From the NCBI GenBank assembly GCA_041498975.1, contig JBGQJI010000012.1, positions 1-30,830 of the forward strand: a stretch of 30,830 bases of DNA, written 5' to 3'. The notes beneath the pieces are model-generated. The model was not told the origin of the DNA. It did no database searches and worked only from the letters and a program-made list of their open reading frames with translations. Positions 14,153 to 30,830 of the stretch are shown piece by piece (the stretch's first letter is position 1; each line of letters starts with the position of its first letter). Both the position numbers and the translations under genes were made by a program. The DNA is from Candidatus Methylomirabilis sp. (GTDB lineage: Bacteria; Methylomirabilota; Methylomirabilia; Methylomirabilales; Methylomirabilaceae).

Positions 14153-14153
14153 C

Positions 14154-14201: not shown

Positions 14202-14303
14202 GTACGGTGATCCCCCCGACCAGGAAGGTGGCTGAGCGCGCCCCAAGGCTGCGTGTTTGGCGGACCAAAAGAGCGCTGGCGTACAGTTGAAGTATCCGAT
14301 ATC

Positions 14304-14320
14304 TTGGCATACGACTTGCT
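14304..14320 (+). promoter_or_regulatory. Sigma-54 (-24/-12) promoter of glnB-glnA
   Basis: TTGGCATACGACTTGCT: GG at 14306-07 and GC at 14318-19 with the exact 10-nt spacing. Confidence 0.85.
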
Positions 14321-14371
14321 TTTCAAACGTGGCAGAGGTGAAGGCTGACATCGTTTTAGGGCCTGGACTAG

Positions 14372-14764
<393 letters not shown>

Positions 14765-14967
14765 CGGGGCGCTCCAGGTGGATTCCTGGCGATCCACGGA
14801 CCCTTGAAGAACCCCCCAGAAAGCTGTGGGTTCTTCGAAGCGAACGGAACCTAAACGATCTGTATTCGCGCACCTCGACTCCCCAGCGAGCTGGGGAGAT
14901 TGCGGCGCGCTAGGCGTGTTCAATGGCGAACTGTTCGACTCGATAAGATAAGGAGGAAACAGGTCCT

Positions 14968-16383
14968 ATGACACCAAAGGATGCCATCAAGCTGGCGAAG
15001 GAGCGGGGCGCGAAGATCGTTGACCTCAGGTTCATTGACCTGCCCGGCCTGTGGCAGCATTTCTCGATACCGGTGCGGGAGTTAACGGAGGAACTATTCG
15101 CCGACGGGATTGGCTTCGACGGCTCTTCTATTCGAGGCTTTCAGCAGATCCATGAGTCGGACATGCTCCTGATCCCTGATCCGGCGAGCGCGGCCATGGA
15201 CCCGTTCCTGTCGGTGCCCACCATGGTCGTGATCTGCAACGTCATGGATCCGGTGACGCGACAACTGTACACCCGGGACCCGCGGTACATCGCGCAGAAG
15301 GCCGAGGCATACCTCAAGTCAACCGCGATTGCGGATACCTCCTATTTCGGGCCCGAGCTGGAGTTCTTTTTCTTCGACGACATCAGGTTCGACCAGAGCT
15401 ACCAGCATGGCTACTACTTCATCGACTCCGAGGCGGGGTTCTGGAACTCGGGGCGGGACGAGAAGCCGAACCTCGGCTACAAGCCCCGCTATAAGCAGGG
15501 GTACTTCCCGGTGCCCCCCATGGACAAGTTCCAGGATATCCGCTCTGAGATGGTCCTGGCGCTGGAGTCGGTGGGGGTTCCGGTGGAGGTCCACCACCAC
15601 GAAGTGGCCACGGGCGGCCAGACAGAGGTGGACATGCGGTACGGCACCCTCACCCGGATGGCCGACAGCGTCCTGTGGTACAAGTACTGCGCCAAGAACA
15701 CCGCCCGCAAGCATGGCAAGACGGCCACCTTCATGCCCAAGCCGCTCTTCCAGGACAACGGCTCCGGTATGCACGTCCACCAGAGCCTTTGGAAAGGCGG
15801 CAAGAACATCTTCTGGGAACTCGGCGGCTACGGGGATATCTCCTCTGCGGCGCTCTACTACATCGGGGGTCTGCTGAAGCATGCCCCCGCCCTGTGCGCC
15901 CTCATCGCCCCGACCACCAATTCCTATAGGCGGCTGGTTCCCGGCTACGAGGCGCCGATCAACCTAGTCTACAGCCAGCGGAACCGCTCGGCGTGCGCGA
16001 GGATTCCCGTCTATTCCAAGAGCGAAGGGGCCAAGCGGATCGAGTTCCGGACCCCCGATCCGAGCTGCAATCCCTACCTGGCGTTCAGCGCCATGCTCAT
16101 GGCGGGCCTCGACGGGATCCAGAAGAAGATCGATCCTGGCCAGCCGATCGATAAAGACCTGTACGAACTCGAGCCGGAGGAGGCGAAAGGGATCAAGCAG
16201 TTGCCGGGGAGTCTGGAAGAGGTCTTGGATGCCCTGGAGGCCGATCATCAGTTCCTGCTGAAGGGCGACGTCTTCACCCAGGATGCGATCGACACCTGGA
16301 TCGAGTACAAGCGGAAGAACGAGGTCGATCCGATCCGCCTCCGCCCCCACCCGTGGGAGTTCGCCCTCTACTTCGACATCTAA
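14968..16383 (+). CDS. glnA: Glutamine synthetase type I (GSI-beta)
   Basis: [60 protein letters not shown] and adenylylation-site DKDLYEL. RBS AAGGAGG. Confidence 0.98.
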
Positions 16384-16407
16384 ACCACTCTGTAGCTACT
16401 GACGCCG

Positions 16408-16444
16408 AAACGGCTCCGGATTACCTCCGGGGCCGTTTTGCTTT
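16408..16444 (+). terminator. Rho-independent terminator of glnB-glnA
   Basis: AAACGGCTCCGGA-TTACC-TCCGGGGCCGTTT followed by TGCTTT. Confidence 0.8.
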
Positions 16445-16593
16445 ACCGCTGGACAATCCAAAATCGCTTGTTATCGCTTTCGGATTATGGTAAGGGTTGG
16501 GCCGATTGTGGAAGATCCATTCCGGGATTGCGACAGTAAGTTCGTGTAAAGGTTCGGGTCTTCATTTGGAAGGAGACAAAGGGGGTGTCGGTA

Positions 16594-17781
16594 ATGAGAC
16601 AAGGTCTCGGGAAACGCCGACCAGGAGTGTCGTGGCCCATCGTCTCGCTTGTCCTGTTGGTGCTTTTCGTGGTTCCGGACGCGTTTGCACAGACGATTAC
16701 GGCCGAAGGTGTGGCGGCGATCACCGGCAACGTGACGATTGCCCGCGAGAAGGCGATCGATGACGCCCTCCGTCGCGCGGTGGAGCAAGCGGTCGGAACG
16801 CTAATCTCCTCCGACACCATGACCAATAACTTCCAGGTGGTCCACGACAAGATCCTGGCCCAGACGTCCGGCTATGTGAAGAATTATCAGATCGTGAAGG
16901 AAGAGCGGGTTGGTCAGGAGTTCCGTGTCACTGTCATGGCCGAGGTTGGGCGAGAGAACCTTCAGCGGACCCTGGAAGCACTGGGACTGATCCAGGTGCT
17001 AAAGGAGAAGCCGAAGGTCATGGTCATCATCGAGGAGCAGGTGGGAGGGCTCTTCGGGACCACCGAGTGGAGAAATGTCGGTCAGGCCGAGTCCACGATC
17101 GTGGACCGGCTGATGGCCGCGGGCTTCAGCGTCGTGGATCCGGCCATGGTCCGGACCAACACATCTCGCGAGAAGGCAATCCTGCTGCTAGAGGGAGACG
17201 AGAAGGCCGCTGTCGCAGCCAGCATTCAGTACGGAGCTCAGGTGATGATCACAGGCCGGGCTTTCTCCAAGAATGCGGGTGGCAGGCTGCTTGGAACACA
17301 GATCCAGTCGATACAGGCTACCTTGCAAGCGAGGGTGTATCGAGCCGACGATGGCCGCATCATCTCGTCACGCAGCGAGCAGGCGACCAAAGCCCACATC
17401 GACGAAATGCAGGGCGGGGCCCTCGCCATTAAAGAGGCGAGCGAGAAGCTGTCTGACGCCTTGATCAAGGACATCTTGGACAGTTGGAAGAAGGAGGTCT
17501 ACGGCCGATCCCAGGAAATCACCCTCGTCATCTCCGGCCTGGTTTCCTACCAAGACTTGACGGCTGTCAAGAAGTTCCTGGAGAACGACCTGCAAGGGGT
17601 CAAGGCGGTCCACCAGCGTAACTTCACCCAGGGCACGGCAGAACTCCAGCTCGACTATGGCGGGAAGACCAGTTTTATTGCCGATGAGCTGGCGTCCAAG
17701 CGGTTCACCGGCTTTCGCCTCGAACCGATTAATGTGACCGCGAACCGGCTTGATCTCCGCGTCGTGATCCTGCGGAAGTGA
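16594..17781 (+). CDS. Exported protein with FlgT N-terminal-like domain and a CsgG/TolB-N-like middle domain
   Basis: Signal peptide ending AFA-Q. AEG.A..AREKAIDDALRRAVEQAVG..I.S.T...N......I...TSGYV..Y.I..E....F.V.V.AEV is the FlgT_N pattern, followed by KPKVMVIIEE..GF.VVD..GAQVMITG. Confidence 0.78.
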   Translation: MRQGLGKRRPGVSWPIVSLVLLVLFVVPDAFAQTITAEGVAAITGNVTIAREKAIDDALRRAVEQAVGTLISSDTMTNNFQVVHDKILAQTSGYVKNYQIVKEERVGQEFRVTVMAEVGRENLQRTLEALGLIQVLKEKPKVMVIIEEQVGGLFGTTEWRNVGQAESTIVDRLMAAGFSVVDPAMVRTNTSREKAILLLEGDEKAAVAASIQYGAQVMITGRAFSKNAGGRLLGTQIQSIQATLQARVYRADDGRIISSRSEQATKAHIDEMQGGALAIKEASEKLSDALIKDILDSWKKEVYGRSQEITLVISGLVSYQDLTAVKKFLENDLQGVKAVHQRNFTQGTAELQLDYGGKTSFIADELASKRFTGFRLEPINVTANRLDLRVVILRK

Positions 17782-17833
17782 ATCGGGCTTCGTATAGGTC
17801 GGTCACTCGCCGATGGGTAAGGGGTGATCAGTG

Positions 17834-18331
17834 ATGAGAGCTCAGATCCGAACGGGTATTATGATGTGTCTCGTCGCAGTAGCACTCCTCTTGGCATATT
17901 CGAGTGAGGATGCGGCATCGGCCACTCTCGACCAGCATGCCTCGGAATCTGAGGCCGCCTATGATCAGGAATCTTCGCAAGGACGCCCGGTGAATTGGGG
18001 GGCGGTCTGGGGAGCGGTGCGGGAGTTTGAGGCACAGACCTACGCGCGCGTTCGTCCCCGGCAGTTCTCGATCGAGATCGCGATGCCTCAACCCTGGCAC
18101 TACATGCAGAGCGCTCCGGTGTTTGCGGCGAACCCGCCCAGCTCTATGACGCCAGGCTACGACGGTTATTCTTACGGCCCCATTTATCCCTATGCTCCTC
18201 CGTACGCCGGCTGGTGGGGTCTATCGCCCTGGCTTCACAGGTGGAGCACGATCTCTTTCAGCCAACACCACCGGCACCACGTAGGAGGGCATGGAGGGCA
18301 TCATGGGGCCAGAGGCCACCACCATCGCTAG
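17834..18331 (+). CDS. Small exported protein with Tyr/Pro-rich segment and His/Gly-rich C-terminus
   Basis: Hydrophobic N-terminal signal; YGPIYPYAPPYAGWWG; C-terminus HHRHHVGGHGGHHGARGHHHR. Confidence 0.65.
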   Translation: MRAQIRTGIMMCLVAVALLLAYSSEDAASATLDQHASESEAAYDQESSQGRPVNWGAVWGAVREFEAQTYARVRPRQFSIEIAMPQPWHYMQSAPVFAANPPSSMTPGYDGYSYGPIYPYAPPYAGWWGLSPWLHRWSTISFSQHHRHHVGGHGGHHGARGHHHR

Positions 18332-18484
18332 TTAGCATCCAATGATCGCTCTGGCCCGTCTCCTGACGGTGGGTGTCTGGCCTCTTCCGGATCTGGTGTT
18401 TCGAGGACTGCGGGGGTGAGGAAGGAATCGGTTGGAAAAGCAAGGCTGACCACCAGGGGAGACGACGCTTGCGGGAGGTTTGTC

Positions 18485-21400
18485 ATGAAGCGCATTTGTA
18501 GGTTGCTTGCTGTTTGGTCCGTGCTCGCGGTGATAGGCAGCTTCCCTGTCCTGCCTTCGCTTGCCAAGGAGCCAGAGTCTCTGAAGGACGATATTCAAGA
18601 TGTCCTCAGGGACATCGCTGAGTTCGCTAATCGAAATGGGGGCAGTATTGTTCCAGATTCAGCACTGGAGTTGGGGATCTCCCGCCTGGAGCATGATCTG
18701 CCCTTTATGGATCGTCTGCTGGCGGCGCTGCCGTGCGGCAAAAAAGCGCCGGACGTCCTCGACGTGAAAGCCGCCCTCGACGCTGTCCGTCGCTTGATCC
18801 CGACAGTGCCGTCCCAGCCCACGGAAAAGAACATAGACGATCTCAAGAAACGCATCGAGTTCCTTGACAAAGTGCATATCACAACGGTTAACCTCATCAA
18901 GTTGAAGGTCATCAGCGGTATGACCACGGCACTCATAGCCGCGGTCCCAGCCTCAGGTAAACCGGGTGCCTCAGGGGTCGACTTCGGCAATGTCCTCGAC
19001 CAGGGCCTGAGCCACATGGGGGTCAATCCCGCGGACACCGGTACGGTGAAGAAATTTCCGGGCCTGCCCCAGTATCGACAGTATCTATATGGTGAAAACA
19101 AGGATGAGTTTCAAAGGTTTGCTCAGCAAAAGGTCGATGAGGGGCTGCGGAAGTATCAGGGTCCCCCCGGGGGGGGACCACGGTTCACCGAGTACGACGT
19201 GTACCTGTGGGCGAACGAATTCACTCGCACCAAGAGCGCGGCGGATAAGAAGGCTGCCGAGCAACAGCTTGAGCAAAAGAAAAAGGAACTGACTGTACTC
19301 CTGCCAAAGAGCCAGGAAGCGGAGAAAAGGAAAAGGTACTTCGAGGGTCTGGTGGCTCGCTTGGAAGCGGCATGGAACGCGTCACTATGGGTGAAGGACA
19401 AGACTCAGTTCGAGAAGCCCGGGGCCGTCATCACCGTTTCGGTTGTCGATGCCGCCTCCGGGAGCCCGATCGGGGACGCGAAAGTTGGTCTCACCCCGCC
19501 CTCGGGAACGATGAGCGCGTCGATGAGCTCGACGAAGTACGTCGGCGTGGATCAGCGAGCGTATAGTATCGTGGCGGAGCACCGAGATTACAACAGCAGT
19601 AGCGCCTCAGTGACGGTGACGGACTGCAAGGATCACCCGGTGGTTGTCCGGCTCGTCCCGCTCCCGAAGCCACCCGCTGTAGCGACTCTCCACGTTTCGG
19701 TCATGGATGAAGCCACTAGGAAAGCGGTGCCTAACCCGAGAGTCGATCTCACCCCGGCCGCCGGCTGGAAAACCTTCCTGCGGGACCCGGACCGAATGGT
19801 GTTCGAGAAGCTGCCGCCGGACTCCTATAGCGTCACGGCCGAGGCCGAAGGCTACACCAGCGGCAGCGACCGGGTGACAGTGATTGAGCAAAAGGATTAC
19901 TCGGTGGTGATTTGGCTGAAGAAGAAAGAGGAGGACACGGGGCCTGTGCCGCACCTCACGGCACGGCTGGACTGTGGCGGCCTCCTAGAAGTGGTGCCTG
20001 GCCAAGGCAGCAAGGCCTGTACGGTAATTGTGGAAGGGTGGCGCAGCAACACCGTTGATCCGGTGGAGGTGGTGCTCTTCCCGAACCCTCCCCCTGGAGG
20101 CATCGTGATGTCTGGCAACACCTCGGTGGACCCGGGCAATATGTACACCGCTGGTGTCTCGGACAAACGGGACGAATACCCAATCAGTGAGTACTTCCGG
20201 GCCGACGACAGTGCACCGCCAGGAACCACGCCATTCCAGATCGTCGTCCGCCAGCGCGGCGCCGGCAGCGTCACGCTTCCGCTCTCGGTCATCGTGCTCC
20301 CTAAGAAGGGTGGGCCCGTCGGGCCTGCACCGGGTTCGCCGTCGTCGCCGCCCATATCCAGCACCACCGGCGGGCAACTGAGCGCGCGCCTGGACTGTGG
20401 CGGTATCCTACAACTGGTGCCGGGCCAAGTCAGCAAGAGCTGCGGTGTGGTCCTCCAGGGGTGGCGTAGCAACACAGCCGACCGCGTCGAGGTGGAGGTA
20501 GTCTATCCGCGGCTGAGCAGCGGGATTGAGGTGTTCCCCGGAACCACTTCCCAGGACCCGGGCAATATGTACACTGCGGGCGTATCGGATCACCAAGGCG
20601 AATACATCTTCTCCGAGGGGTTCTCCGCCAGCGACAGCGCCCTCCCTGGGACCACACCGGTGCGGGTCGTCGTTCGCCAGCGCGGCGCCGGCGAGCTCAC
20701 CCTCAGCCTGAACGTGACGGTCCTCGCCAAGGGCACGCCCGATATTCTCGGGATTGGCACGCCCCCTCCCGTCCAAGCCGGAACCGGGGGCAATATCTGC
20801 GTCTGGCGGTACAAGCTCATCGGCGATCCATACCCGGACTGCTGGCATTTCGTGGCCTCCACCTGCGAGAACAGACGGTATGCGAATAAGCCGGACTACC
20901 CGCTGGCAGGCTCGAACATGAACTGGGGGGACGCCGACCGGCTGATCGGGGAGCAGAGCCGCTACTTCAGCGACGCGTGTCGAGGAATCGCCCCCGGCCC
21001 GTCGCAGGCGGCAGCGCCCCCGCCGGCGACCGTGGCCGCCGGCAGCGGAGGGGAGTACTGCGTCTGGCGCTATAAACTCTTCGGCGATCCCCCGGCCTGT
21101 TTCCACTTCGCGGCCGCGGCGTGCGATACGCCCCGGTACACCAATCCCCGGGGTGGCTACGAGTTGGTCGGCTCTGGCATGAAGCGGTCGGAGGCCGACG
21201 CGCGGATTCAGGAGCTCAGTCGCTACTTCGACGACGCCTACGCGTGTCGCGCAGCCGCCGCTACACCTTCCACGAAACCGGCCACGCCTCCACCGTCCAC
21301 CCCTTCGGACTCTAGTGATTCCACCCCGCCGACCCCCCCCATCGGCCCTACGGAGCCTTCCGAACCCCTCCCTCCCACAGGCCCCGCCCAACCTACCCGC

Positions 21401-22441
21401 TACCTGTCTGCCTTTCAGGTGGCATGCCGCCCCACGACGATAGTGGCCAAGGAACAGTCGGCGACCTGCCAAGCGTCGGGGGTGTACTCGGACAAGCCGG
21501 ACCAGGCTGTGAACCTGACGGCCCCGCCCACGACCTGGGAAAACGGTCCTACATTCAGCTCCGATGTGGACGGTGAGTACACGGTCACGGCCTCCCTCGA
21601 GGGGTTGAGCGGATCGGCGACGGTGAGGGTGAAGAAGAAAGCGGACATCGCCGGCGCCACTAAAGAGGCGGGGAAGGTCCAAGCGCAGGATCCGGGGGGT
21701 AAGGCGCCCCCCACGCAACCAGACACGCCCGGTCAGACACAGGGGGGCTATGCGGAGCCACCGCCCGGCTCGACCCCAGGCGGGGGTCAAGGTGGCACTC
21801 CAGGCGCGCCGGGACTACCGCTGCCTCCGGGATTGCAGCCCGGAGTCGTCGTCGGAGGTCTGGTCAGCCCACCCGGGTTGGGGCCGTTGGGGGGGCCGCT
21901 GCCTGGAGGGCCTCCGGTGGGCGGAGGGGGTGGCCCGTATGGACCGTCCACCGGAGGTGGATCACCAGGGTCAAAGCCAGCGAAGACCGCCGGGGGGGCG
22001 CCTCCGAGGACGCCGCCGGTGAAGACCCCGCCCACCACGCTGCCGCCGGTCACGCCGCCCGGGCCCCCTCCGCCGCCCCCGACCCCTGGGTCAGGCGCGC
22101 AGGGTATTGACTTGTCAGGCACGTGGCAGGCAACCTACAACGCAGACTTTTTAGGCAATTTAAGGTTTACTATGACCCTCCGCCGCGTCGCTGCCGGTAA
22201 GTGGGAAGGTCCATTGGACTACGATGTTGTTGACTGTCCTGAGATGAGCTTCAAGACCCAGGCAACGCTTCAGGCTACGGGCGTCGGAAAAGTACATCTG
22301 ACATATAACAGTCCAGCAAAAGACTGTCCAAGATATGTTGGGAAGATAGTGGCAGGGGCTCAGCAGGCAGATGGGACGTACACCAACTCCCAAATTACCT
22401 TCGGGGCTTCTCCCAACACTGTGACGTACACGAGAAAGTAG
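18485..22441 (+). CDS. Large exported modular protein: helical N-domain, 2 carboxypeptidase-regulatory-like domains, 2 long Cys/Ig-like repeats, 2 short Cys-rich repeats, Ig-like domain, Pro/Gly linker, C-terminal beta domain
   Basis: RBS GGGAGG; signal MKRICRLLAVWSVLAVIGSFPVLPSLA; two V.V.D..SG.PI..A.V.L..Y.V.A.A.GY units; internal repeats visible at protein and DNA level. Confidence 0.85.
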   Translation: MKRICRLLAVWSVLAVIGSFPVLPSLAKEPESLKDDIQDVLRDIAEFANRNGGSIVPDSALELGISRLEHDLPFMDRLLAALPCGKKAPDVLDVKAALDAVRRLIPTVPSQPTEKNIDDLKKRIEFLDKVHITTVNLIKLKVISGMTTALIAAVPASGKPGASGVDFGNVLDQGLSHMGVNPADTGTVKKFPGLPQYRQYLYGENKDEFQRFAQQKVDEGLRKYQGPPGGGPRFTEYDVYLWANEFTRTKSAADKKAAEQQLEQKKKELTVLLPKSQEAEKRKRYFEGLVARLEAAWNASLWVKDKTQFEKPGAVITVSVVDAASGSPIGDAKVGLTPPSGTMSASMSSTKYVGVDQRAYSIVAEHRDYNSSSASVTVTDCKDHPVVVRLVPLPKPPAVATLHVSVMDEATRKAVPNPRVDLTPAAGWKTFLRDPDRMVFEKLPPDSYSVTAEAEGYTSGSDRVTVIEQKDYSVVIWLKKKEEDTGPVPHLTARLDCGGLLEVVPGQGSKACTVIVEGWRSNTVDPVEVVLFPNPPPGGIVMSGNTSVDPGNMYTAGVSDKRDEYPISEYFRADDSAPPGTTPFQIVVRQRGAGSVTLPLSVIVLPKKGGPVGPAPGSPSSPPISSTTGGQLSARLDCGGILQLVPGQVSKSCGVVLQGWRSNTADRVEVEVVYPRLSSGIEVFPGTTSQDPGNMYTAGVSDHQGEYIFSEGFSASDSALPGTTPVRVVVRQRGAGELTLSLNVTVLAKGTPDILGIGTPPPVQAGTGGNICVWRYKLIGDPYPDCWHFVASTCENRRYANKPDYPLAGSNMNWGDADRLIGEQSRYFSDACRGIAPGPSQAAAPPPATVAAGSGGEYCVWRYKLFGDPPACFHFAAAACDTPRYTNPRGGYELVGSGMKRSEADARIQELSRYFDDAYACRAAAATPSTKPATPPPSTPSDSSDSTPPTPPIGPTEPSEPLPPTGPAQPTRYLSAFQVACRPTTIVAKEQSATCQASGVYSDKPDQAVNLTAPPTTWENGPTFSSDVDGEYTVTASLEGLSGSATVRVKKKADIAGATKEAGKVQAQDPGGKAPPTQPDTPGQTQGGYAEPPPGSTPGGGQGGTPGAPGLPLPPGLQPGVVVGGLVSPPGLGPLGGPLPGGPPVGGGGGPYGPSTGGGSPGSKPAKTAGGAPPRTPPVKTPPTTLPPVTPPGPPPPPPTPGSGAQGIDLSGTWQATYNADFLGNLRFTMTLRRVAAGKWEGPLDYDVVDCPEMSFKTQATLQATGVGKVHLTYNSPAKDCPRYVGKIVAGAQQADGTYTNSQITFGASPNTVTYTRK
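19955..20731 (+). repeat. Intragenic tandem repeat A (two units of ~117 aa)
   Basis: Units 19955-20305 and 20378-20731 share LxARLDCGG..VPGQ.SK.C.V...GWRSNT.D.VEV..DPGNMYTAGVSD..SE.F.A.DSA.PGTTP..VVRQRGAG..TL.L.V.VL.K. Confidence 0.9.
20786..21247 (+). repeat. Intragenic tandem repeat B (two Cys-rich units of ~65 aa)
   Basis: Units ~20786-20980 and ~21047-21247 share GG..CVWRYKL.GDP..C.HF.A..C...RY.N....Y.L.GS.M....AD..I.E.SRYF.DA. Confidence 0.9.
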
Positions 22442-22476
22442 TGATCGCAGTTCTACAGACCGGCGGCCTCTAGTGA

Positions 22477-22509
22477 ACCGCCCGCGCCGGATGCGCCGGC
22501 TCGGGCGGT
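22477..22509 (+). other. GC-rich intergenic hairpin just upstream of the Rhs RBS
   Basis: ACCGCCCGCGCCGG-ATGCG-CCGGCTCGGGCGGT with no U-tract, followed by AAGGGGGG and ATG 22525. Confidence 0.5.
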
Positions 22510-22524
22510 AAGGGGGGATATCAC

Positions 22525-25500
22525 ATGCCTATGATTGCTAGACGGCTGACTGCGCTGATCGTTCTCGTGGCATTCGTCCTTGAGCCGTTCATGGGTCTCA
22601 TCGGCCGTGAACTGGCGGAGGCCGATTCCCGGGGGCGAGCCTCCCGTGTCGCGGCGTTCGATAACGCGCTGGCCTTGCACTTCGGTCGGGGCACGTCCTC
22701 CGATAGGCTTTTCGTCCACCATCCCGGCGACCCGGTCAACCTCCGCACGGGAAATCTCACGCTTCCCGGGATTGACCTGTCTGTCCCCTCTCGAGGCCCG
22801 TCGCTGGAGGTTACGCGGAATTACAACAGTCGGTCGTCTGCGGCCGGTCTCTTCGGACTGAAGTGGCAGTCCAACCTGGAGATGCGGGCGCTCCGCCTTG
22901 CGGGAAGGATTGCCATCGTGGAGCCCGATGGCGCCCTGATCGAGTTCAGGCCGGACGGCAACACCCCGGGCGCTGCGACCGGCGGATCGCGGTACAGAGC
23001 CACCGTGCGCGGCCCGGAGCAGGCGGAGGAGAGGCCGGACGGGTCACTCCTGAGGCAGACGGCCGCCGGGACTCGGGAGCTGTTCGATCGACAGGGCCGG
23101 CTGGGACGGATCGAGGACCGAAACGGCAATGCCCTCCGCTTGGAGTACCAGGGCGACAAGCTCATGAGAGTCACGAGCGATTCAGGGCGGGGGCTGACCT
23201 TTATGTATGGCGGTCCCGGCGGCCGATTCGTCGTGATGGTGAAGGACCCGGCCGGAGGGATCATTCGCTACCAGTACGACACGCGAGGCCGCCTGATCAG
23301 CGTCATCGACCAGGCCGGGCGCGAGGGACGCTACGAGTACGATGGCCGCGATCGGCTGGTCGGGCTGATCTACACCGACGGCGCGGAGACGCGGATGACC
23401 TACGAGGGCGATACCGGCGCGGTCCTGGCGCAGCAGGGACCTGGCCCTGGGACGACGACCTACCGATACGAGTGGGAGCCGGGCGGCGTGCTGTCTCGTC
23501 GGACGATGGTCACCGACGTTGCGGGCCGTCGGACCGTCTACGAATACGCTCAAGGCGGACGGGAGTTGGCCGTCACTGAGCCTTCCGGCCGTCGGACGGC
23601 CGTGCTCTACGATCCAGACTTCCACCAACCGCTAAGCGTGAGCGGGCCGAAGGGGATCCTCGCCTCCTATCAATACGATAGTTCGGGACGCCTCTTGAGT
23701 GAGACGAGCGCGCTGCGGCGGACGACCCGTTACCGCCACGACCCGGTCTCCGGCCGGCTGCTCGAGGTCATCGACGGGGCAGGCCACCGTGCCCGCTTCG
23801 AGTACGATGCCAGAGGGAACCGGCTGGCGGCGGTTCGAGGGGACGGGGCGGCGACGCGCGGCGTGTACGATGCGCGCGGCCAGATCGTCGAGCGGATCGA
23901 TCCAACCGGCGCCCGGACACGGTTTGGCTATGACCAGGCGGGAAACCTGATCGAGCAGGCGGACGCCGCCGGGCAGAAGACGCGATACGAGTACGACGTT
24001 CTCGGCCGGCAGGTCAGACGAATCGGGGCCAGTGCGGCGGAGACTCGTTGGGCCTACAACGGGGTCGGAGACCTGATCAAGAAGGTGGACGCCGAGGGGC
24101 GAGAGACGGTCTACCAGTATGACCCGATGCGCCGGTTGAGTGCGGTGACCGACTCGGCCGGCCGCGTCACCCGGTACGAGTATGATATCGGCGGCCAGCT
24201 CGTCGCCGTCGTCGATCCGGCGGGTGGGAGGACGGTCCGAAGCTACACGCCGGATGGGCTCCTGCGGGAGATCACAGACGCGAGCGGGGTCGTCCTCCGG
24301 TACGAGTATGATCCGCTTGGTCGGAGAGTCGCCCGGATCGACGGCCTGGGCCACCGCTCGCGGTACGAGTACGACGCCGAGGGCCGCCTCGCCACCTTGC
24401 GGGACCCGACTGGAAACGAGCTTCGACGTGCCTACGACGCTGGCGGGCGGCCAACGGTCCTGGCGAACCAGTCGGGCCGGACTACTCTGACGTATGATCC
24501 CGCCGGCCGCGTCGAGGCGTTGACCGAGCCCGACGGGAGGACCTGGCGGTACCGGTTCGGCCCGGTGGGGAAGGTCACGGAGGTGATCGATCCGGCCGGC
24601 GGCAAGGCCGCGTATCGGTACGATGCAGCGGGACGGCTCCTTGAGCAACTCGATCCGGCCGGCCTGAGCGTCCGCTACCTCAGAGACCAGCTCGGCCGAG
24701 TGGCTGCCGTCGAAGACCCGCTTGGGCCAGTGATGCGTCTCGCTTACGACGACTGCGGCAACGCAGTCTCCAAACTCTCACCCTCTGGAAAGGGGGTCAG
24801 ATATGGATACGACCGCCTTGGGCGCGTTGTTAGTATCAGCTATCCCGACGGCAGCGAGCGACGATTTCAATATGACCGGGCCGGAAATGCCGTGGCTGCA
24901 AGGCAAGGCGAGGAAGCAATCCAGTACAGGTACGACGCCTTGAACCGCCTGGTTAGTGTACAGTACCCTCGCTTGAACAAGACGATCCGCTACGCCTATG
25001 ACGCCGCCGGGCGCCGGACGGAAATGGTGGACACCGCCGGAGGCGTGACTCGGTACCGTTACGACGCGGCCGGCCGCCTCGCAGAGCTGACACCGCCGGA
25101 TGGCGCCATTCTACGTTTTGCCTATGACCCTGCCGGGCGCATGACGGAGGTTCGCTACCCCAACGGGGTGACGGGCAGGATCTCCTACGAGCTAAATGGC
25201 CGTGCGAAGGGTGTAGGGTATGAGCGGGCCGGACAACCGATCGCAGGACGTAGCTACCAGTATGATCCCTCAGGTCGCCCCGCGTCTGCGACCGCCCATG
25301 ACGGCTCGATGGAGCGGTACGGCTATGATGGGCTTTCACGGCTTACGACGGTAACGGGCGCCAAAGGGGATCGGGTTGAGTATGCGTACCTCCCTGACGG
25401 CAGCCGGGCTCGGACGTCCTCAGGTTCGTCCTCGGTCAGTTACAGCTACGACCCGGCGGGTCGCCTCGTCGCCGCTGGAGGCGTGACGTTCAGGCATGAC

Positions 25501-27453
25501 GCTGACGGGAACCTCATCGAGCGGAAGGGGCCTGAAGGCGTGACTGGGTATGAGTATGACGCCGACCGCCGATTGGTCAAGGTAAGCACGCCGAATGGTC
25601 AGACGATCGCCTACGGCTACGATCCGGATGGGCAGCGGTTGTGGCGGAGCGATATGGCAGGGACCGCCTACTTCCTCCATGACGGTCTCAACCTCGTCGC
25701 CGAGTTGGACGACAAGTTCTCGGTGAAGGCCCTGTACCTTCACGGCGAGGGGCTGGACGCTCCCCTCGTCATGATGCGGGCAGGGAAGAGTTATTACTAC
25801 CATCCGGACCGATTGGGCAACATCCTTGCGCTGACCGATGATCGTGGGCAAGTCGTGGCCTCGTACACATATGACCCCTTCGGCTCTCCCCAGTCCCTCC
25901 AGGCAACTGTGCCGAATCCATTCCTCTTTACGGCCCGGGAATACGATTCGGCCACCCGCCTCTATCACTTCCGTGCCCGCGAGTACGACCCAGCGTTAGG
26001 CCGATTTCTCACGAAAGATCCGTTGCCGGGCAATCTCCTTGATCCTCGTACGCTCCAGCCGTACGTGTACGTGTCCAACAATCCCTTGTCCCTTACTGAC
26101 CCGCTTGGGTTAGTCGGGTTTAGTGATCCTCCGAGTATTCCGGGTCTCCCCTCGTCAGGTTATCTCCAACCAAGCGACATCGCTAAAATCACAGACCCCG
26201 GTATGCGCGTCAACGTGCTCCAGCAGATCAATCAGGTGGCCACTCAGTACCCAGGACGGTACAGCGTCGGCATCACTCCGGGTAATCCCGGAACGCTGAC
26301 GGTGTGGCCGAATAATGGACCGCCGCAGACCATCTATCCGGAGCCACTCGGGGTGCCTGGCGGCATGGCAAATATAGCCATCCCTGAAGGACCCGTCGAA
26401 ATCGTGCCTGCGCCTAAGCCACCAGGAGGCATGACATTACCTGTCACGCCTGAGCCTGTTGCGCCCGTTACACCTGCGGAACCTGTCGTGCTCGAACCGG
26501 TTGCTCCGGGGGGCGCTGCCGGTGGGGCAGGGGAGGGTGCGGGCATTTCCGTGGGCGGGGCGCTGGGCGTGGTGGCGTTCGGGGTTGCGGTGATTGCAAG
26601 CGCCGTCCATATCGCCACGGCGGACGATAAAACAGGGGCGACCATACAGGAAACTGGTGGCTGGGTCGGCGCGATATATGGGGCCGGAGTTGGGGCATTT
26701 CTCTCTCCGGTTCTCGGTCCGCTTGGCCCGATCGGTGGCGGACTCATCGGCGGATTCATCGGGAGCGTAGTCGCTGGCTGCCTCTACGGCCCCTGTCCGC
26801 CGCCGGGCCCGTCGCCTTACCTCCCACCGGTGGAGCCGCCGCCATCGAGCCCGACCGGGAGTGTGCCCGCGTCCGGCACAAGCGACGGAAACCCCGTGCT
26901 CACCCCTCTACCTGACCCCGGCACGCCATCGGTGACCGTGGCGCCCTTTCCGCCGGTACACCCACCAAAACTTCCATCGGGGGAATCTGGACCGCCCCCC
27001 GACCTTGTCTCCCCGCCCTCCACTGAGCCCGAGCCTGGGAGCATGGGCACCGGGGCAGTCCCCAACATCAAGGGCGCAACAGAAGCAGCGGGCGAGTCCC
27101 AGCAAACGGCTCCCTGGGGGGCGTCACAGCAGCCCGCCACTCAATCGACGCAATCCGGGCCGCAGGGGCCGGGTTACGGAGCGCCGGAGCCGCCACCGGC
27201 CTCCCCGCCGCAGGGCAGCGCGGGCACGGCACCGGCTTATCCTGGGTCCCCGGGGTATCCGCCGTCGCCGGGCACCGGGTTCACGCCCCCTGGCTATAGT
27301 CTGCCACCGATGGATGATCCCGGGGAATCGCTTGGTTCTGGTGGAAGTGGCTCGAGGGGAGGGCGCGGACATCCCCCGAGGGGCGGTGGAAGGAAGGACC
27401 CAAAGCCGGGGACACCTGTGACGCCTCCCTGCAACCCTTGCGGAGGAGCGTGA
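22525..27453 (+). CDS. Sec-signal Rhs/YD-repeat protein (DUF6531 + YD repeats + Rhs-associated core + 446-aa C-terminal extension)
   Basis: Signal-like N-terminus ending AEA; DUF6531 pattern GDPVNLRTGN..DL..LEVTRNYNS..FG..W; many YD.xGRL repeats; core YYHPDRLG, YDPFG, REYD..TRLYHFRAREYDP.LGRFLTKDP and NNPLSLTDPLGL (DPLGL at 26098-26112). Confidence 0.93.
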   Translation: MPMIARRLTALIVLVAFVLEPFMGLIGRELAEADSRGRASRVAAFDNALALHFGRGTSSDRLFVHHPGDPVNLRTGNLTLPGIDLSVPSRGPSLEVTRNYNSRSSAAGLFGLKWQSNLEMRALRLAGRIAIVEPDGALIEFRPDGNTPGAATGGSRYRATVRGPEQAEERPDGSLLRQTAAGTRELFDRQGRLGRIEDRNGNALRLEYQGDKLMRVTSDSGRGLTFMYGGPGGRFVVMVKDPAGGIIRYQYDTRGRLISVIDQAGREGRYEYDGRDRLVGLIYTDGAETRMTYEGDTGAVLAQQGPGPGTTTYRYEWEPGGVLSRRTMVTDVAGRRTVYEYAQGGRELAVTEPSGRRTAVLYDPDFHQPLSVSGPKGILASYQYDSSGRLLSETSALRRTTRYRHDPVSGRLLEVIDGAGHRARFEYDARGNRLAAVRGDGAATRGVYDARGQIVERIDPTGARTRFGYDQAGNLIEQADAAGQKTRYEYDVLGRQVRRIGASAAETRWAYNGVGDLIKKVDAEGRETVYQYDPMRRLSAVTDSAGRVTRYEYDIGGQLVAVVDPAGGRTVRSYTPDGLLREITDASGVVLRYEYDPLGRRVARIDGLGHRSRYEYDAEGRLATLRDPTGNELRRAYDAGGRPTVLANQSGRTTLTYDPAGRVEALTEPDGRTWRYRFGPVGKVTEVIDPAGGKAAYRYDAAGRLLEQLDPAGLSVRYLRDQLGRVAAVEDPLGPVMRLAYDDCGNAVSKLSPSGKGVRYGYDRLGRVVSISYPDGSERRFQYDRAGNAVAARQGEEAIQYRYDALNRLVSVQYPRLNKTIRYAYDAAGRRTEMVDTAGGVTRYRYDAAGRLAELTPPDGAILRFAYDPAGRMTEVRYPNGVTGRISYELNGRAKGVGYERAGQPIAGRSYQYDPSGRPASATAHDGSMERYGYDGLSRLTTVTGAKGDRVEYAYLPDGSRARTSSGSSSVSYSYDPAGRLVAAGGVTFRHDADGNLIERKGPEGVTGYEYDADRRLVKVSTPNGQTIAYGYDPDGQRLWRSDMAGTAYFLHDGLNLVAELDDKFSVKALYLHGEGLDAPLVMMRAGKSYYYHPDRLGNILALTDDRGQVVASYTYDPFGSPQSLQATVPNPFLFTAREYDSATRLYHFRAREYDPALGRFLTKDPLPGNLLDPRTLQPYVYVSNNPLSLTDPLGLVGFSDPPSIPGLPSSGYLQPSDIAKITDPGMRVNVLQQINQVATQYPGRYSVGITPGNPGTLTVWPNNGPPQTIYPEPLGVPGGMANIAIPEGPVEIVPAPKPPGGMTLPVTPEPVAPVTPAEPVVLEPVAPGGAAGGAGEGAGISVGGALGVVAFGVAVIASAVHIATADDKTGATIQETGGWVGAIYGAGVGAFLSPVLGPLGPIGGGLIGGFIGSVVAGCLYGPCPPPGPSPYLPPVEPPPSSPTGSVPASGTSDGNPVLTPLPDPGTPSVTVAPFPPVHPPKLPSGESGPPPDLVSPPSTEPEPGSMGTGAVPNIKGATEAAGESQQTAPWGASQQPATQSTQSGPQGPGYGAPEPPPASPPQGSAGTAPAYPGSPGYPPSPGTGFTPPGYSLPPMDDPGESLGSGGSGSRGGRGHPPRGGGRKDPKPGTPVTPPCNPCGGA

Positions 27454-27626
27454 ACCCCCGGGAATTGTTGAGCGCCGGGCTGGCGCTCGAGGGGGAATGA
27501 GATCGATTCCATTGGATTGCCATTGCGACTTGCAATTCAAGCGGACATTCTGAGCAGCATCGCGGCCGGATCGGTCTGAGGTTCAATTTCTGAGAGAGCA
27601 CACACCAACTTGAGGAGATGAAAGGT

Positions 27627-28562
27627 ATGGAGATCCGCCACTGTAGGATTGGGTTGATTGTCACCTTGGGGGTCGCCGTTGTCGTTGGCTCGCCGTTCAG
27701 TCCGAAGAGTGTCTACGCGCAGGGGAAGGTCCGGATCGCGGTGACGGCATTCGAGAACAAGGCGAAGAGTCCCTACCTCGATCCCAGTTGGAAGATCGGC
27801 GAGGGGCTTGCCGAGATCCTCACCACCGAGCTGGCCAAGACCGGCCAGTTTATCGTTGTCGAGCGGCAGGCGCTTGGCGACATCGTGAAAGAGCAAGAGC
27901 TGGGACAGACCGGCCTGGTTCGCGGTGAGACAGCGGCCAGGACCGGGGAGATCATGGGGGCGCAGATCGTGGTGCGCGGCGCGATCACAGAGTTCGAGGA
28001 GCGGGCGAGTGGAGGCGGCGCCGGGCTCCAGGTACGAGGGTTCCAAGGTGGTGGCGGGGTCAGCAACGCCCACGTTGCGCTCGACATTCGCCTGATCGAC
28101 ACGTCAAGCGGACAGGTGATCGCCTCGCACCGTGCGGCAAAGTCGGTCCCGTCCGGCGGCGGGAAGCTCGATGCCAGGATCGGAACCGTCCAATTCGGGG
28201 GCGAGGCCTTCTTCCAGACGCCATTCGGTCAAGCGACGCGGGCAGCGATGGACGATGCCCTTCAGTTCATCATGGCGACCGCCTTCAAAGCTGTGGTTCC
28301 GTCTTTCTCCATCGTCAAGGTGGAGGGGGGGACGGCCTACATCAATGCGGGCACGAATTCGAATGTCAGGGTCGGCGACGTGTTCATGGTGTACACGAGG
28401 GGAGAAGAGCTGATAGATCCGGATACCGGCCTGAAACTGGGCAGCGACGAGAGGATGATCGGGTCGATCCAGATCACCTCGGTGCAGGAGAAATTTTCGA
28501 TCGGGACGATCAGGGGTAGTACGGGCGCCATGAAGCGAGGCGATCTGGTCAAGGTGCGATGA
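27627..28562 (+). CDS. CsgG/HfaB-family protein with FlgT-C-like domain (non-lipidated signal)
   Basis: RIAVTAFENK, LAEILTTELAKTGQFIVVERQAL..IVKEQEL, GAQ..VRGAITEFE and VALDIRLID..SG.VI. C-terminal YINAG....V.VGD.F.VY..GEELIDPDTG..LG. Signal ends VYA-Q. Alternative start 27618. Confidence 0.85.
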   Translation: MEIRHCRIGLIVTLGVAVVVGSPFSPKSVYAQGKVRIAVTAFENKAKSPYLDPSWKIGEGLAEILTTELAKTGQFIVVERQALGDIVKEQELGQTGLVRGETAARTGEIMGAQIVVRGAITEFEERASGGGAGLQVRGFQGGGGVSNAHVALDIRLIDTSSGQVIASHRAAKSVPSGGGKLDARIGTVQFGGEAFFQTPFGQATRAAMDDALQFIMATAFKAVVPSFSIVKVEGGTAYINAGTNSNVRVGDVFMVYTRGEELIDPDTGLKLGSDERMIGSIQITSVQEKFSIGTIRGSTGAMKRGDLVKVR

Positions 28563-28655
28563 AGGCGCGCTCAGCAGACGCCCATGTGGCGGGAAACTGT
28601 ATGGCTTAGCCCCAGAACAGAGATAGGAATCGTCATTGCTTCGAAAGTCCCCGGG

Positions 28656-28830
28656 TGTCATTGCGAGGGAGCGGAGCGACCGAAGCAATCTGACCCGAAG
28701 GGTCATTCCGAGCAACGCGAGGAATCTCACCGGGATTGCTTCGCTGCGCCTCGCAACGACACTGCGTGTCGGATTGCCGCGCACCCTTCGACTCGGCTCA
28801 GGACAGGCCCTTTGAGTGCTCGCAATGACA
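28656..28830. repeat. Composite/nested REP-like palindromic element
   Basis: Perfect terminal inverted repeat TGTCATTGCGAG...CTCGCAATGACA. Internal GAAGCAATC/GATTGCTTCG arms, plus embedded GTCATTCCGAG..GCGAGGAATCT and CCCTTCGAC..GCTCAGG half-elements. Confidence 0.85.
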
Positions 28831-28985
28831 GATATTTCAGGCCGTTGGTAAGTCTATCTCTGTTCTTGCGATTATGAAATGTCTTGACTTTTGGCACCGG
28901 AAGCGATAACTGAATCACCGGATTACTAATCGGCGTCGTCGTGGATGGGTAGAATGTGCTTGCCGCATACGGGAGGTCATTCGGG

Positions 28986-29987
28986 ATGAACCGCGCTCTT
29001 CTCCCCCTCGCCCTGAGGAAGTTCGTGTTCGCGGCGGTTGGCAGTGCCGCCCTGCTCATCGCCGGGTGTGCAGCCGTACCGCCTCCTGGTGGGCCCGGGC
29101 AGGAGGCTGCGGCCCTCCAGGCTGCTCAGCTCACCTATCCCCCTTACGATGGGCTCAAGAAACGGTTGGCTGTCATCCGGTTTGAGAACAAAGTCAAGAC
29201 TGCGCTTCCCGATCCCAGTTGGAAAATCGGAGAGGGGCTGACGGAAATGATCACGAGCGAGCTGTTCAAGACCGGCCGCTTTATCATGGTGGAGCGCGCA
29301 GCCCTTGCCGACATCGTGAAGGAGCAGGAGTTGGGACAGACCGGCCTCATCCAGAAGGAGACTGCAGCCAAGGTCGGGGAGTTGCTAGGGGCTCAACTTC
29401 TCATCACTGGAGCCGTGACGGAATTCGAGGCTCAGGCTCGGGGAGGCGGAGGGGCGGTGGGGTTCCGCGGAATCGGCGTCAACCTGCGCACACAGAGCGC
29501 GCACGTTGCGGTCGATGTTCGCCTGGTCGATGCCTCAACTGCCCAGATTCTGACCTCGATGAATGCGGAGGCATCAGCGTCGTATACGGGGCTGGGCTTT
29601 ACGGCCAAAATAAAGGGTGTGGATTTTGGCTCTGAAGGGTTTCAGAATACCCCGTTGGGTCAGGCGACCCGCGAGGCGATCTACAAGGCCGTCACGCAGA
29701 TTATCAAAGAGATGGAGAGGTTCCCGTGGACCGGCCGGGTGATCCAGGTCAAGGAGGGGGACATCTATGTGAACGCGGGAGTCAATGTCAACCTGAAACC
29801 CGGTGTGAAGCTCGCCGCGTACGTCAAAGGAGAGGATCTGTTCGATCCCGGCACGGGGCTGAATCTCGGGAGCAGGGACACCCTCGTTGGCACCGTCACC
29901 GTGAGAGATGTACAGGAGAAGTTCAGCATCGGCACATTCGCTGGGAATGGAGCCCTGAAGCGAGGCGACCTCTTGAAGTTCCAGTGA
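28986..29987 (+). CDS. CsgG/HfaB-family lipoprotein with FlgT-C-like domain
   Basis: RBS GGGAGG; lipobox LIAG-C; YDGLKKRLAVIRFENK, KTGRFIMVERAAL..IVKEQEL and GAVTEFE. Close paralog of 27627-28562. Confidence 0.88.
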   Translation: MNRALLPLALRKFVFAAVGSAALLIAGCAAVPPPGGPGQEAAALQAAQLTYPPYDGLKKRLAVIRFENKVKTALPDPSWKIGEGLTEMITSELFKTGRFIMVERAALADIVKEQELGQTGLIQKETAAKVGELLGAQLLITGAVTEFEAQARGGGGAVGFRGIGVNLRTQSAHVAVDVRLVDASTAQILTSMNAEASASYTGLGFTAKIKGVDFGSEGFQNTPLGQATREAIYKAVTQIIKEMERFPWTGRVIQVKEGDIYVNAGVNVNLKPGVKLAAYVKGEDLFDPGTGLNLGSRDTLVGTVTVRDVQEKFSIGTFAGNGALKRGDLLKFQ

Positions 29988-30056
29988 AACAGCCCTCACC
30001 GAAGCCTCTCCCCAGTGGGGAAAGGGTACGAAACGTTTGGAGAAGGAGGTGATGTC

Positions 30057-30251
30057 GTGAAACGATGGGCCAAGCTGTTTTCCCTGTTGCTGCTGACGGT
30101 CATCGGACTTGGCGCATGCTATTATTATGTCCCGCCTCCACCTCCACCGGCGCCACCACCTCCGCCAGCGGCCTATACGCCGCCTCCACAGGGGCCGTCC
30201 CCGCCCCACCCGTATGTCGGCCCCACAGACCCGCAGAGGGGATCTCGGTGA
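30057..30251 (+). CDS. Small polyproline lipoprotein 1 (64 aa)
   Basis: RBS AAGGAGGT, GTG start; MKRWAKLFSLLLLTVIGLGA-CYYYVPPPPPPAPPPPPAAYTPPPQGP... Confidence 0.8.
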   Translation: MKRWAKLFSLLLLTVIGLGACYYYVPPPPPPAPPPPPAAYTPPPQGPSPPHPYVGPTDPQRGSR

Positions 30252-30297
30252 ACCCCGCCGATTCACGACCAGGTCTGGATGAGAAAGGAGGTCATCG

Positions 30298-30450
30298 GTG
30301 CTTCGACGACCAAGCATACTGCTGCTGCTTATCGGGGTAGGGCTCCTGGCGGGGTGCTATGTGTACCAGATGCCGCCGCCCCCTCCGCCCCCGCCACCAC
30401 CAGCCTATGCTCCTCCACCCCCGCCACCTCCCGTGCTGGTTCCTCGGTAG
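30298..30450 (+). CDS. Small polyproline lipoprotein 2 (50 aa; not in the ORF track)
   Basis: RBS AAGGAGGT, GTG start; MLRRPSILLLLIGVGLLAG-CYVYQMPPPPPPPPPPAYAPPPPPPPVLVPR*; perfect lipobox LAGC. Confidence 0.8.
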   Translation: MLRRPSILLLLIGVGLLAGCYVYQMPPPPPPPPPPAYAPPPPPPPVLVPR

Positions 30451-30478
30451 GGCCACGGAGAAAGGAGGATATGGTGTC

Positions 30479-30830
30479 ATGCGTCGAGATCCAGAGAGGC
30501 TAGTCATCAACGATTGTGTCCGGCAGAGTAAAGCTGCCGTGCTTCTGCTTTCAGCGAGTTCATTGGCCCTCGCGCTGACCGCCCTGGCCGGCTGCACCGT
30601 CTACGACTACGGTCCCGGCCGGCCCCCGGTGGTGGTCCCCGGCGTCCTCGTGCCGCCGCCCCCGCCCCAGCCGGCCTACGCGCCCCCCCCGCCACCCCCA
30701 GCCCCGATCGTCCGGCAGGACGTGACGCTGCGAGCCAAGGGGGCCGGGGCGCCCCCGACGAAGGCCGCGAACGCCGCCCAGGCCCGCCTCATGTCGGAGC
30801 GGGCAGCCAAGGTGGACGGGTACCGCAACC
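30479..30830 (+). CDS. LPP20/FlgP-like lipoprotein with Pro-rich N-terminus (truncated by window end; not in the ORF track)
   Basis: RBS AAGGAGG; lipobox LAG-C; CTVYDYGPG..PPPPPQPAYAPPPPPP, then LRAKGAGAPP..AQARLMSERAAKVDGYRN, the LPP20/FlgP pattern A.G.G....QA.LMA.RAA..D.YR.L. Frame is open to the end. Confidence 0.78.
   Translation, partial: MRRDPERLVINDCVRQSKAAVLLLSASSLALALTALAGCTVYDYGPGRPPVVVPGVLVPPPPPQPAYAPPPPPPAPIVRQDVTLRAKGAGAPPTKAANAAQARLMSERAAKVDGYRN

Follow-up and report, generated by a model that had tools for sequence, protein, structure and literature searches.

A FlgT/CsgG/LPP20-type envelope gene array in Candidatus Methylomirabilis and its recurrent linkage to genes for Rhs and other large exported proteins

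The DNA analyzed here (the window, 30,830 nucleotides) is the whole of contig C12 from a genome bin of the methane-oxidizing NC10 bacterium Candidatus Methylomirabilis sp. (G000; 241 contigs, 2.68 Mb, 84.9% complete). Positions 16594-30830 hold an array of nine co-oriented plus-strand genes that runs to the contig end. Every product has a signal sequence or a lipobox, as assigned by reading the sequences together with their hydropathy. The genes encode a FlgT_N protein (P1), a small exported protein (P2), a large modular protein (P3), an Rhs protein, two CsgG-family proteins (CsgG-a and CsgG-b), two short lipoproteins with polyproline (PP1 and PP2) and an LPP20/FlgP-like lipoprotein (Table 1). 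The original prediction, made from the DNA sequence, had listed nine consecutive exported plus-strand genes, and all are found where it had placed them. It had also stated that no flagellar, curli, type VI secretion system (T6SS) or TpsB gene is present in the window; none is detected among the 28 open reading frames (ORFs) scanned against Pfam and NCBIfam (PP2 excluded). We read the array as a version, particular to this lineage, of a FlgT/CsgG/LPP20 envelope module that is widespread and not flagellar; it belongs to a P1 subfamily with a variable slot for genes encoding large Sec-exported proteins (here termed clients).

Table 1. Features of the array, with positions in the window.
Feature	Position	Strand	Description
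P1	16594..17781	+	395 aa; FlgT_N, CsgG/TolB_N-like middle domain and alpha/beta C-terminal domain; signal peptidase I type signal, no lipobox
P2	17831..18331	+	Small exported Tyr/Pro/Gly-rich protein with His-rich tail
P3	18485..22441	+	1318-aa exported modular protein; start is an ATG with Shine-Dalgarno sequence; putative client
Rhs	22525..27453	+	Signal sequence, DUF6531, YD shell, core with DPLGL at residue 1192, 446-aa C-terminal region; putative client
CsgG-a	27618..28562	+	CsgG-family domain and FlgT_C-like beta domain; signal peptidase I type signal, no lipobox
Dispersed repeat	28563..28955	.	Intergenic; enlarges the spacing between CsgG-a and CsgG-b, which is 115 nt in G009; blastn gives 79 alignments across the genome, including its own place
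CsgG-b	28956..29987	+	Lipoprotein (Cys38 of the ORF; likely start 28986); CsgG-family domain and FlgT_C/TsaP-like beta domain
PP1	30057..30251	+	64-aa lipoprotein; lipobox and polyproline; orthologue in G009:C45
PP2	30298..30450	+	50-aa lipoprotein; lipobox and polyproline; orthologue in G009:C45
LPP20/FlgP-like lipoprotein	30479..30830	+	Lipobox, proline-rich spacer of ~45 residues, start of LPP20; cut by the contig end

P1 has the conserved domain FlgT_N (45.2 bits; cut-off 28.8) and a further match to DUF2066 (25.8 bits; cut-off 23). Its predicted structure (pLDDT 85.3) is most similar to FlgT (8z5n_0 and 3w1e; E-value for FlgT: 1e-11), and the middle domain of the model resembles CsgG, PelC, LptE and GNA1162. 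In profile comparison, the N-terminal domain matches a lipoprotein chain of Campylobacter jejuni (9hmf_C; 2.9e-6). P1 also aligns, weakly, over its full length with Leptospira LipL46 (NCBIfam NF033164; 84.7 bits, E-value: 5e-24). As the cut-off for that family is 400 bits, P1 is not an equivalog of LipL46, a protein treated as a surface antigen or adhesin in the available portions of the literature; P1 also differs from it in lacking a lipobox.

CsgG-a and CsgG-b are paralogues (50% identity), and both have the conserved domain CsgG (PF03783, cut-off 20.8; 134.6 and 144.1 bits, respectively). They had been predicted to combine CsgG with a FlgT_C-like domain. The first half of this assignment holds for both proteins; FlgT_C reaches 26.4 bits in CsgG-a, slightly below the cut-off of 27, and in CsgG-b it has no sequence match and is seen in the structural model only. 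A profile of the CsgG-a/b family matches E. coli CsgG at 1e-12, without gaps over the first membrane hairpin, and its C-terminal domain matches the C-terminus of the secretin-associated protein TsaP (6.7e-9). The loop aligned to the CsgG constriction is ~6 residues shorter in this family. The CsgG-b model (pLDDT 80.6) has a long beta-hairpin at residues 148-192, with a low-confidence tip, and a second segment of similar length as read by eye. Going by the models, the folds of P1 and CsgG-b are those of ring-forming proteins. The LPP20 fragment of the window has no family match by itself. Its orthologue in the same-genus genome G009 (189 aa; 93% identity over the 41 shared residues) matches Pfam LPP20 (PF02169; 28.6 bits; cut-off 25.9).

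P2 has no Pfam or NCBIfam match. P3 consists of a helical N-terminal region, CarboxypepD_reg domains, a ~140-aa domain present twice, Cys-rich repeats, Pro/Gly-rich linkers and a small C-terminal domain. CarboxypepD_reg is its sole Pfam family (33.4 bits; cut-off 32.3), and its one hydrophobic segment is N-terminal. The Rhs protein matches DUF6531 (58 bits), RHS_repeat (451 bits over 23 stretches) and Rhs_assc_core (72.9 bits). Its N-terminus is a signal sequence, and no PAAR family match is found on the protein. The region after the core has no Pfam family at an E-value of 0.5 or below; it contains two strongly hydrophobic Gly/Ala-rich segments and Pro-rich tails. FlgT_N, CsgG, DUF6531 and the Rhs core, which the original prediction had named for confirmation, are all matched by family profiles, and LPP20 is matched by way of the G009 orthologue.

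P1 is patchily distributed in the genus, being found in 2 of 19 other genomes, yet relatives with 60-66% identity occur in Nitrospirota. A pattern scan based on the P1 alignment returned 123 relatives, from which 80 loci were kept; the window proteins were located in these by tblastn, with crude gene maps and Pfam scans. A FastTree phylogeny of P1 (73 rows) has two clades, each with a support of 100. Left out of the tree were L029, L041, L052, L059, L069, L088, L099 and L100, in which the ORF caller had missed P1; four of these had clients. In one clade, three LPP20 genes precede P1; after P1 come a variable slot and then, in this order, genes for a FecR+LPP20 protein, an exported aromatic protein of ~140 aa and a CsgG+FlgT_C protein. 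The other has the order LPP20, TPR/SLH protein, P1, CsgG and FecR protein, with no slot.

Clients are confined to the first of these clades. By our own count, a slot client (a signal-peptide protein of at least 600 aa) is present in 29 of 47 loci of that clade and in 0 of 33 of the other; on the tree, 27 of 44 rows have a client, 13 have none and 4 are cut by a contig end, against 0 of 29. An Rhs gene lies beside the module in 13 of the 80 loci. These belong to Methylomirabilota, Thermodesulfovibrio/Nitrospiraceae, Syntrophus, Desulfocapsaceae, Burkholderiaceae, Chromatiales and Sedimenticolaceae, and linkage to Rhs or giant proteins spans the large groups Methylomirabilota, Nitrospirota, Desulfobacterota and Gammaproteobacteria. 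Other occupants of the slot are P3-like proteins, proteins of 2084-2271 aa with PKD, SprB and Ig domains and several unannotated proteins of 600-1500 aa. P3 residues ~496-940 are shared with large proteins of the same slot in five loci (L040, L048 and L065-L067), and the C-terminal piece only in two more. The Rhs label needs at least seven changes on the P1 tree, so client type turns over among close relatives of P1. ORFs of at least 900 aa account for 22 of the 187 within or flanking the module, compared with 20 of the 668 in the remainder of these loci (Fisher p = 8e-6, which overstates the difference because related loci are not independent).

All clients examined begin with a signal sequence. 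BLAST comparison of 29 client proteins separates them into several unrelated families, and their annotated domains are of surface type (PKD, SprB, Ig, HYR, PASTA, CBM96 and CarboxypepD_reg). In the non-Rhs clients there is no membrane segment other than the signal peptide. An N-terminal targeting domain common to the clients was considered and rejected, as a phmmer search with P3 residues 24-345 returned only P3 itself.

The most telling result comes from whole-genome content. In three genomes (G041, with a 4.07-Mb chromosome, G044 and G045), all RHS_repeat matches lie within a single gene, and that gene is linked to the module. Had the Rhs and large genes proved to be unlinked from the module elsewhere, chance insertion would have been indicated for the window; the linkage recurs in other genomes, so their placement is not a chance insertion. 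The T6SS sheath gene product TssC was not found in any of five NC10 genomes, one of them closed, or in any of five other carrier genomes.

The original prediction had proposed that ring-forming families are redeployed here outside flagella and curli, and genome content bears this out. Flagellin (Flagellin_N) and FlhA (FHIPEP) were not found in the P1 carriers G000, G009 (94% complete) and G015 (80% complete). Both are present in G008:C1 and G010:C15, two genomes without P1 (five genomes tested, two of the carriers incomplete). Curlin (Curlin_rpt) is likewise not found in the five NC10 genomes. For two-partner secretion, no TpsB gene adjoins the array, and the ShlB profile gives weak matches only (23-35 bits) to one ORF of 764-824 aa per genome, on other contigs; we take this ORF to be BamA-like. 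No autotransporter, TpsA, RTX or T9SS-tail family was detected at an E-value of 1e-4 or below in any of the client proteins among the 40 proteins scanned.

Three known systems share parts with the array. In the Caulobacter holdfast, HfaA and HfaD require the CsgG-like protein HfaB, a proposed translocon and anchor base, for their location at the surface, according to the portions of PMC6707917 that were available. This is the closest worked example, as a functional analogy: a CsgG-like protein under the outer membrane is encoded with exported proteins. It differs in that no FlgT_N or LPP20 partners are described in those portions and the Hfa clients are small to medium-sized, not Rhs shells or proteins of 1300-2300 aa; moreover, there are no polysaccharide export genes at the window array. 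Curli CsgG (type VIII secretion; PDB 4uv3, 4uv2 and 3x2r) resembles the array proteins in the CsgG domain, which is far over its Pfam cut-off and is also matched by profile in the PDB, and in the lipidation expected of CsgG-b. The array proteins differ from it in their extra FlgT_C/TsaP-like C-terminal domain and in the unlipidated state predicted for CsgG-a and most relatives, and no CsgE or CsgF family is found among the window ORFs scanned. The Vibrio FlgT/FlgO/FlgP H-ring and the Campylobacter FlgP basal disk (PDB 3w1e, 8z5n and 9hmf) are lipoprotein rings associated with the outer membrane; they share domain families with the array and supply the best folds for P1 and CsgG-b. Here the differences are the lack of any flagellar marker in the carriers tested, a dissimilar C-terminal domain in P1 and the client genes carried by the array.

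Because the window is a whole contig, the DNA downstream of the array was sought on other contigs. The start of contig C105 encodes the final 44 residues of an LPP20 protein (91% identity to the G009 orthologue), followed by a 553-aa protein with a trypsin-like domain, an extracytoplasmic function (ECF) sigma factor and a zf-HC2 anti-sigma factor. The same order is found uninterrupted in G009:C45, which encodes Rhs (66-68% identical to the window Rhs), CsgG-a, CsgG-b, PP1, PP2, LPP20, protease, sigma factor and anti-sigma factor. G009:C27 carries glnA, P1 (82-83% identity), P2 (38%) and two further Rhs genes that reach the contig end. An ordinary flagellar or curli locus downstream would have spoken against the original prediction; with a trypsin-like protease and an ECF sigma/anti-sigma pair in both genomes, the downstream DNA is neither. 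A CsgG/LpoB-like fold was also considered for the periplasmic portions of the anti-sigma factor and the protease, and was rejected (hhalign probabilities 0.2% and 1.4%).

C192 opens in the same way as C105, so that G000:C105:1-132 and G000:C192:1-129 share the LPP20 C-terminus; the locus may have a duplicated tail, or one that the assembly has collapsed. The 3' end of C105 encodes a second small LPP20-like exported protein (L102:8018-8908), 35% identical to that of G009 over 92 residues. It is followed by DNA 81% identical to the PP1-PP2 junction of the window (~30195-30328), and an S41 protease gene lies upstream (5424-7082). A further LPP20-like match, on C13, was dismissed as a module part. 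It belongs to a FecR+LPP20 protein in an unrelated context: the exported 361-aa protein of L103:7153-8238, the C-terminal third of which is 53% identical to G009 LPP20, is followed by a 644-aa membrane protein (L103:8331-10265) that by eye is an adenylate/guanylate cyclase with a CHASE2-like sensor.

The gene order of the array is confirmed by contigs from four DNA runs as far as the dispersed repeat at 28.7 kb, where all four assemblies break. One 12,386-nt contig from an independent run assembly covers 16299-28684, that is, P1 through CsgG-a. A scan of 16300-30830 gave 4 promoter-like sites (2.5 expected from shuffles) and 8 terminator-like sites (8.7 expected) and is uninformative. The DNA before the array (1-16383) carries housekeeping genes, among them those for trigger factor, alanine racemase, ribose-5-phosphate isomerase, fructose-bisphosphatase, a 5-oxoprolinase-like trio and glutamine synthetase. 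The trio (LamB_YcsF, CT_C_D and CT_A_B) and the D-glutamate-cyclase-like gene after it occupy 8978-13015; they belong to ordinary metabolism and are unrelated to the array.

Two further components were seen in the related loci. An exported protein of ~130-165 aa, rich in Tyr, Pro, Trp and Cys and with no Pfam family, is encoded between the FecR+LPP20 and CsgG genes or directly before P1. A hidden Markov model (HMM) of 12 members finds it in 15 loci (L025:12228-12656, L027:15769-16239, L048:5104-5562 and 12 others) at E-values of 9e-13 or better, 12 of these loci being those of the training members. This aromatic protein could itself be a substrate of the CsgG-like protein. P2 was considered as its local form and set aside, as P2 is not matched by the HMM at an E-value of 0.01 or below; the likeness is compositional only. 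In the Syntrophia-type loci (L033:3381-12078, L042:6733-15081 and L045:11111-19468), a PKD/SprB/Ig protein of 2103-2271 aa is accompanied by a CsgG protein of 618-642 aa with an N-terminal extension of ~300 aa. The giants of these loci share an N-terminal region of several hundred residues with, by eye, a Gly-Ser ... Asp-x-Asp motif.

The working model for the array is as follows. All nine products would cross the inner membrane by the Sec pathway. CsgG-b, PP1, PP2 and the LPP20 protein would be lipidated and come to lie under the outer membrane, with the polyproline spacers setting the distance from it. P1, CsgG-a, CsgG-b and LPP20 would then assemble as an outer-membrane ring complex like their solved relatives. 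This complex would take up the slot-encoded clients in the periplasm (in the window, P3 and Rhs), which might either be threaded through a CsgG-type barrel or be mounted and anchored at the outer membrane. The families, folds, export signals and recurrent gene linkage are established by the analysis, as is the finding of no T6SS sheath, flagellar or curlin gene in the carriers tested; ring assembly, contact between module and clients and any crossing of the outer membrane are inferred.

The recurrent pairing suggests a previously undescribed machine that handles large proteins at the outer membrane. That the module and its slot-encoded clients are functionally coupled, whether as portal or as anchor, is in our judgment an evenly balanced proposition. 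The more specific proposal is that the P1-clade module is a new outer-membrane export and display system, made from type VIII and flagellar ring parts, which brings Sec-exported giants (Rhs shells, PKD/SprB adhesins and P3-type proteins) to the surface. This is put forward tentatively, as an unlikely but specific possibility.

Several observations weigh against such a system. The CsgG-b model is best matched by the middle and C-terminal domains of FlgT (8z5n chain 0 and 3w1e; TMq 0.61 and 0.56, ~290 columns, E-value: 1e-17), with CsgG in second place (E-value: 2e-9, TMq 0.37) over the N-terminal domain only. The lipobox is missing from CsgG-a and from most of 44 aligned CsgG-like relatives, which have signal peptidase I type signals only. 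The CsgG-like proteins of the array may, then, not be pores. The Vibrio HL-rings are described as fixed to the outer membrane without a pore in the available part of 10.64898/2025.12.02.691832. Modules lacking a client in cis are frequent (13 of 44 rows in the client clade, and every one of the 29 in the other). Rhs core domains also occur in genomes that lack P1 (G010, G019, G016 and G005), in one of which (G010) TssC was not found either. Additional Rhs loci with no module gene within ~10 kb are present in G042 (four) and G043 (one). G000 itself has a second signal-peptide Rhs-type protein (G000:C58:3-4196, L104, minus strand; >1398 aa, truncated where the contig ends), the N-terminal region of which is long and not of Rhs type; its gene adjoins a response regulator gene, and no module gene is near.

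Two other points concern the clients. The module-linked Rhs proteins are each other's best matches, so co-transfer rather than repeated recruitment may explain part of the linkage. In two Pseudomonadales loci (L065:15998-20927 and L071:15196-19721), a giant signal-peptide protein gene after P1 is followed by genes for a TolC-like protein (OEP), an HlyD-like protein, an ABC ATPase and a MacB-type permease. Pumps of the TolC/HlyD/MacB type take periplasmic substrates, and a pump beside the client would offer another exit in some loci. (L065 also has, upstream, genes for a 7TMR-DISM histidine kinase and a LuxR-type regulator.) The original prediction of an Rhs portal other than T6SS is therefore upheld in part: the recurrent linkage and the lack of TssC in ten genomes speak for it, and the FlgT-like fold, the client-less modules and the Rhs genes without a module speak against it.

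Those same three observations would be expected if the module were a self-sufficient envelope ring or scaffold with a job of its own. The slot would then be a permissive, perhaps co-regulated, site for genes of large exported proteins, and the module would not handle Rhs or P3 at all. The module does have conserved parts of its own (LPP20 paralogues, the FecR+LPP20 protein and the ~140-aa aromatic protein), in keeping with such a role. A scaffold of this kind leaves unexplained why three genomes have their only RHS-repeat gene precisely at the module, why unrelated client families (Rhs, P3-like and PKD/SprB giants, among others) occupy the same slot in several phylum-level groups and why clients are restricted to one P1 clade; we regard it as a possibility to be taken seriously, if a doubtful one.

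It is also conceivable, and rather improbable, that nothing leaves the cell. The Rhs protein would stay in the inner membrane with its shell on the periplasmic side, proteins of the P3 type would be periplasmic and associated with the wall, and the ring module would dock both to form a tether or spacer spanning the periplasm. Hydrophobic segments after the core are present in 9 of 13 module-linked Rhs proteins (Kyte-Doolittle maxima of 1.9-2.6 over 19 residues) and could arrest Rhs in the inner membrane during Sec transport, which is also a point against export. The C-terminal regions of linked Rhs proteins (446-827 aa, the longest 772-827 aa) have long helical stretches, an association with the cell wall is suggested by PASTA in P3-like proteins and by SLH in one protein of the other clade's module, and the polyproline segments of the lipoproteins could serve as spacers. 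On the other hand, the three Sedimenticolaceae Rhs proteins and that of L059 lack a hydrophobic segment, the non-Rhs clients have no membrane segment past the signal peptide, and proteins with PKD, SprB, HYR and CBM domains are typically found on the cell surface. We also know of no precedent for a periplasmic Rhs shell.

The Rhs protein might instead be an ordinary polymorphic antibacterial toxin, pore-forming like Tse5 and released by an unrelated route (vesicles, lysis or an unrecognized system), with its position an accident of a genomic island. In its DUF6531, YD shell and canonical core with the DPLGL cleavage motif, it resembles T6SS Rhs effectors, and its Gly/Ala-rich hydrophobic segments after the core recall the pore-forming C-terminus of Tse5 as described in the available part of PMC10684867; RHS toxins with Sec signals are filed under 'T2SS' (type II secretion) in the portion of PMC3482391 that was seen. 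There are also differences from such effectors. A signal peptide replaces PAAR/VgrG coupling, TssC was not found, and the 164-nt gap between Rhs and CsgG-a contains no ORF of more than 20 aa and hence no candidate immunity gene. No toxin-type Pfam family is found at an E-value of 0.5 or below in six further linked Rhs tails (0 of 7 with that of the window). The DPxGL motif is missing from several linked Rhs proteins, and the C-terminal regions have adhesin-like modules, those of G009 sharing modules with P3. Tails of this length are presumably too long to be fully enclosed in the YD shell, going by Rhs and Tc cages. Overall, the C-terminal regions look structural, with membrane segments, coiled coils, adhesin modules and no recognizable toxin domain. 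These features argue against a classical toxin cassette and raise the possibility of retention in the inner membrane. The linkage also recurs across phylum-level groups. Overall, an unrelated toxin is a very unlikely explanation.

Least credible of all is that these genes are left over from a flagellar motor or accessory to one, as proteins of the H-ring or basal disk: FlgT_N, FlgT_C, FlgT_M and FlgO profile matches, the FlgT folds, the match to C. jejuni 9hmf_C and the flagella of some congeners would suit it, but flagellin and FlhA are not found in the P1 carriers G000, G009 and G015 and are present in the P1-less G008 and G010, and no flagellar family is seen among the annotated neighbors in the window or related loci.

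Full-text literature searches found no description of a FlgT/CsgG/LPP20 module with Rhs or giant-protein clients. New here are the link to Rhs, the restriction of the client slot to a single P1 clade and Rhs tails that do not look like toxins. To our knowledge, no route past the outer membrane has been described for the signal-peptide Rhs proteins, or for many of the giant adhesins, of diderm bacteria. The standard catalogue, in the portion of PMC3482391 available, files signal-peptide Rhs proteins under 'T2SS'. A conserved pairing with ring proteins of the CsgG/FlgT/FlgP types, seen in genomes that yielded no T6SS sheath gene, provides concrete candidates for handling them, and the question of how Rhs and giant proteins deal with the outer membrane becomes open to knock-out and localization experiments. 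The array also presents Rhs shells with structural-looking C-terminal regions and offers a possible function for a widespread, unstudied envelope module. If the export reading is true, the T6SS-independent route still missing for signal-peptide Rhs proteins would be this module, in diderms of at least three phyla.

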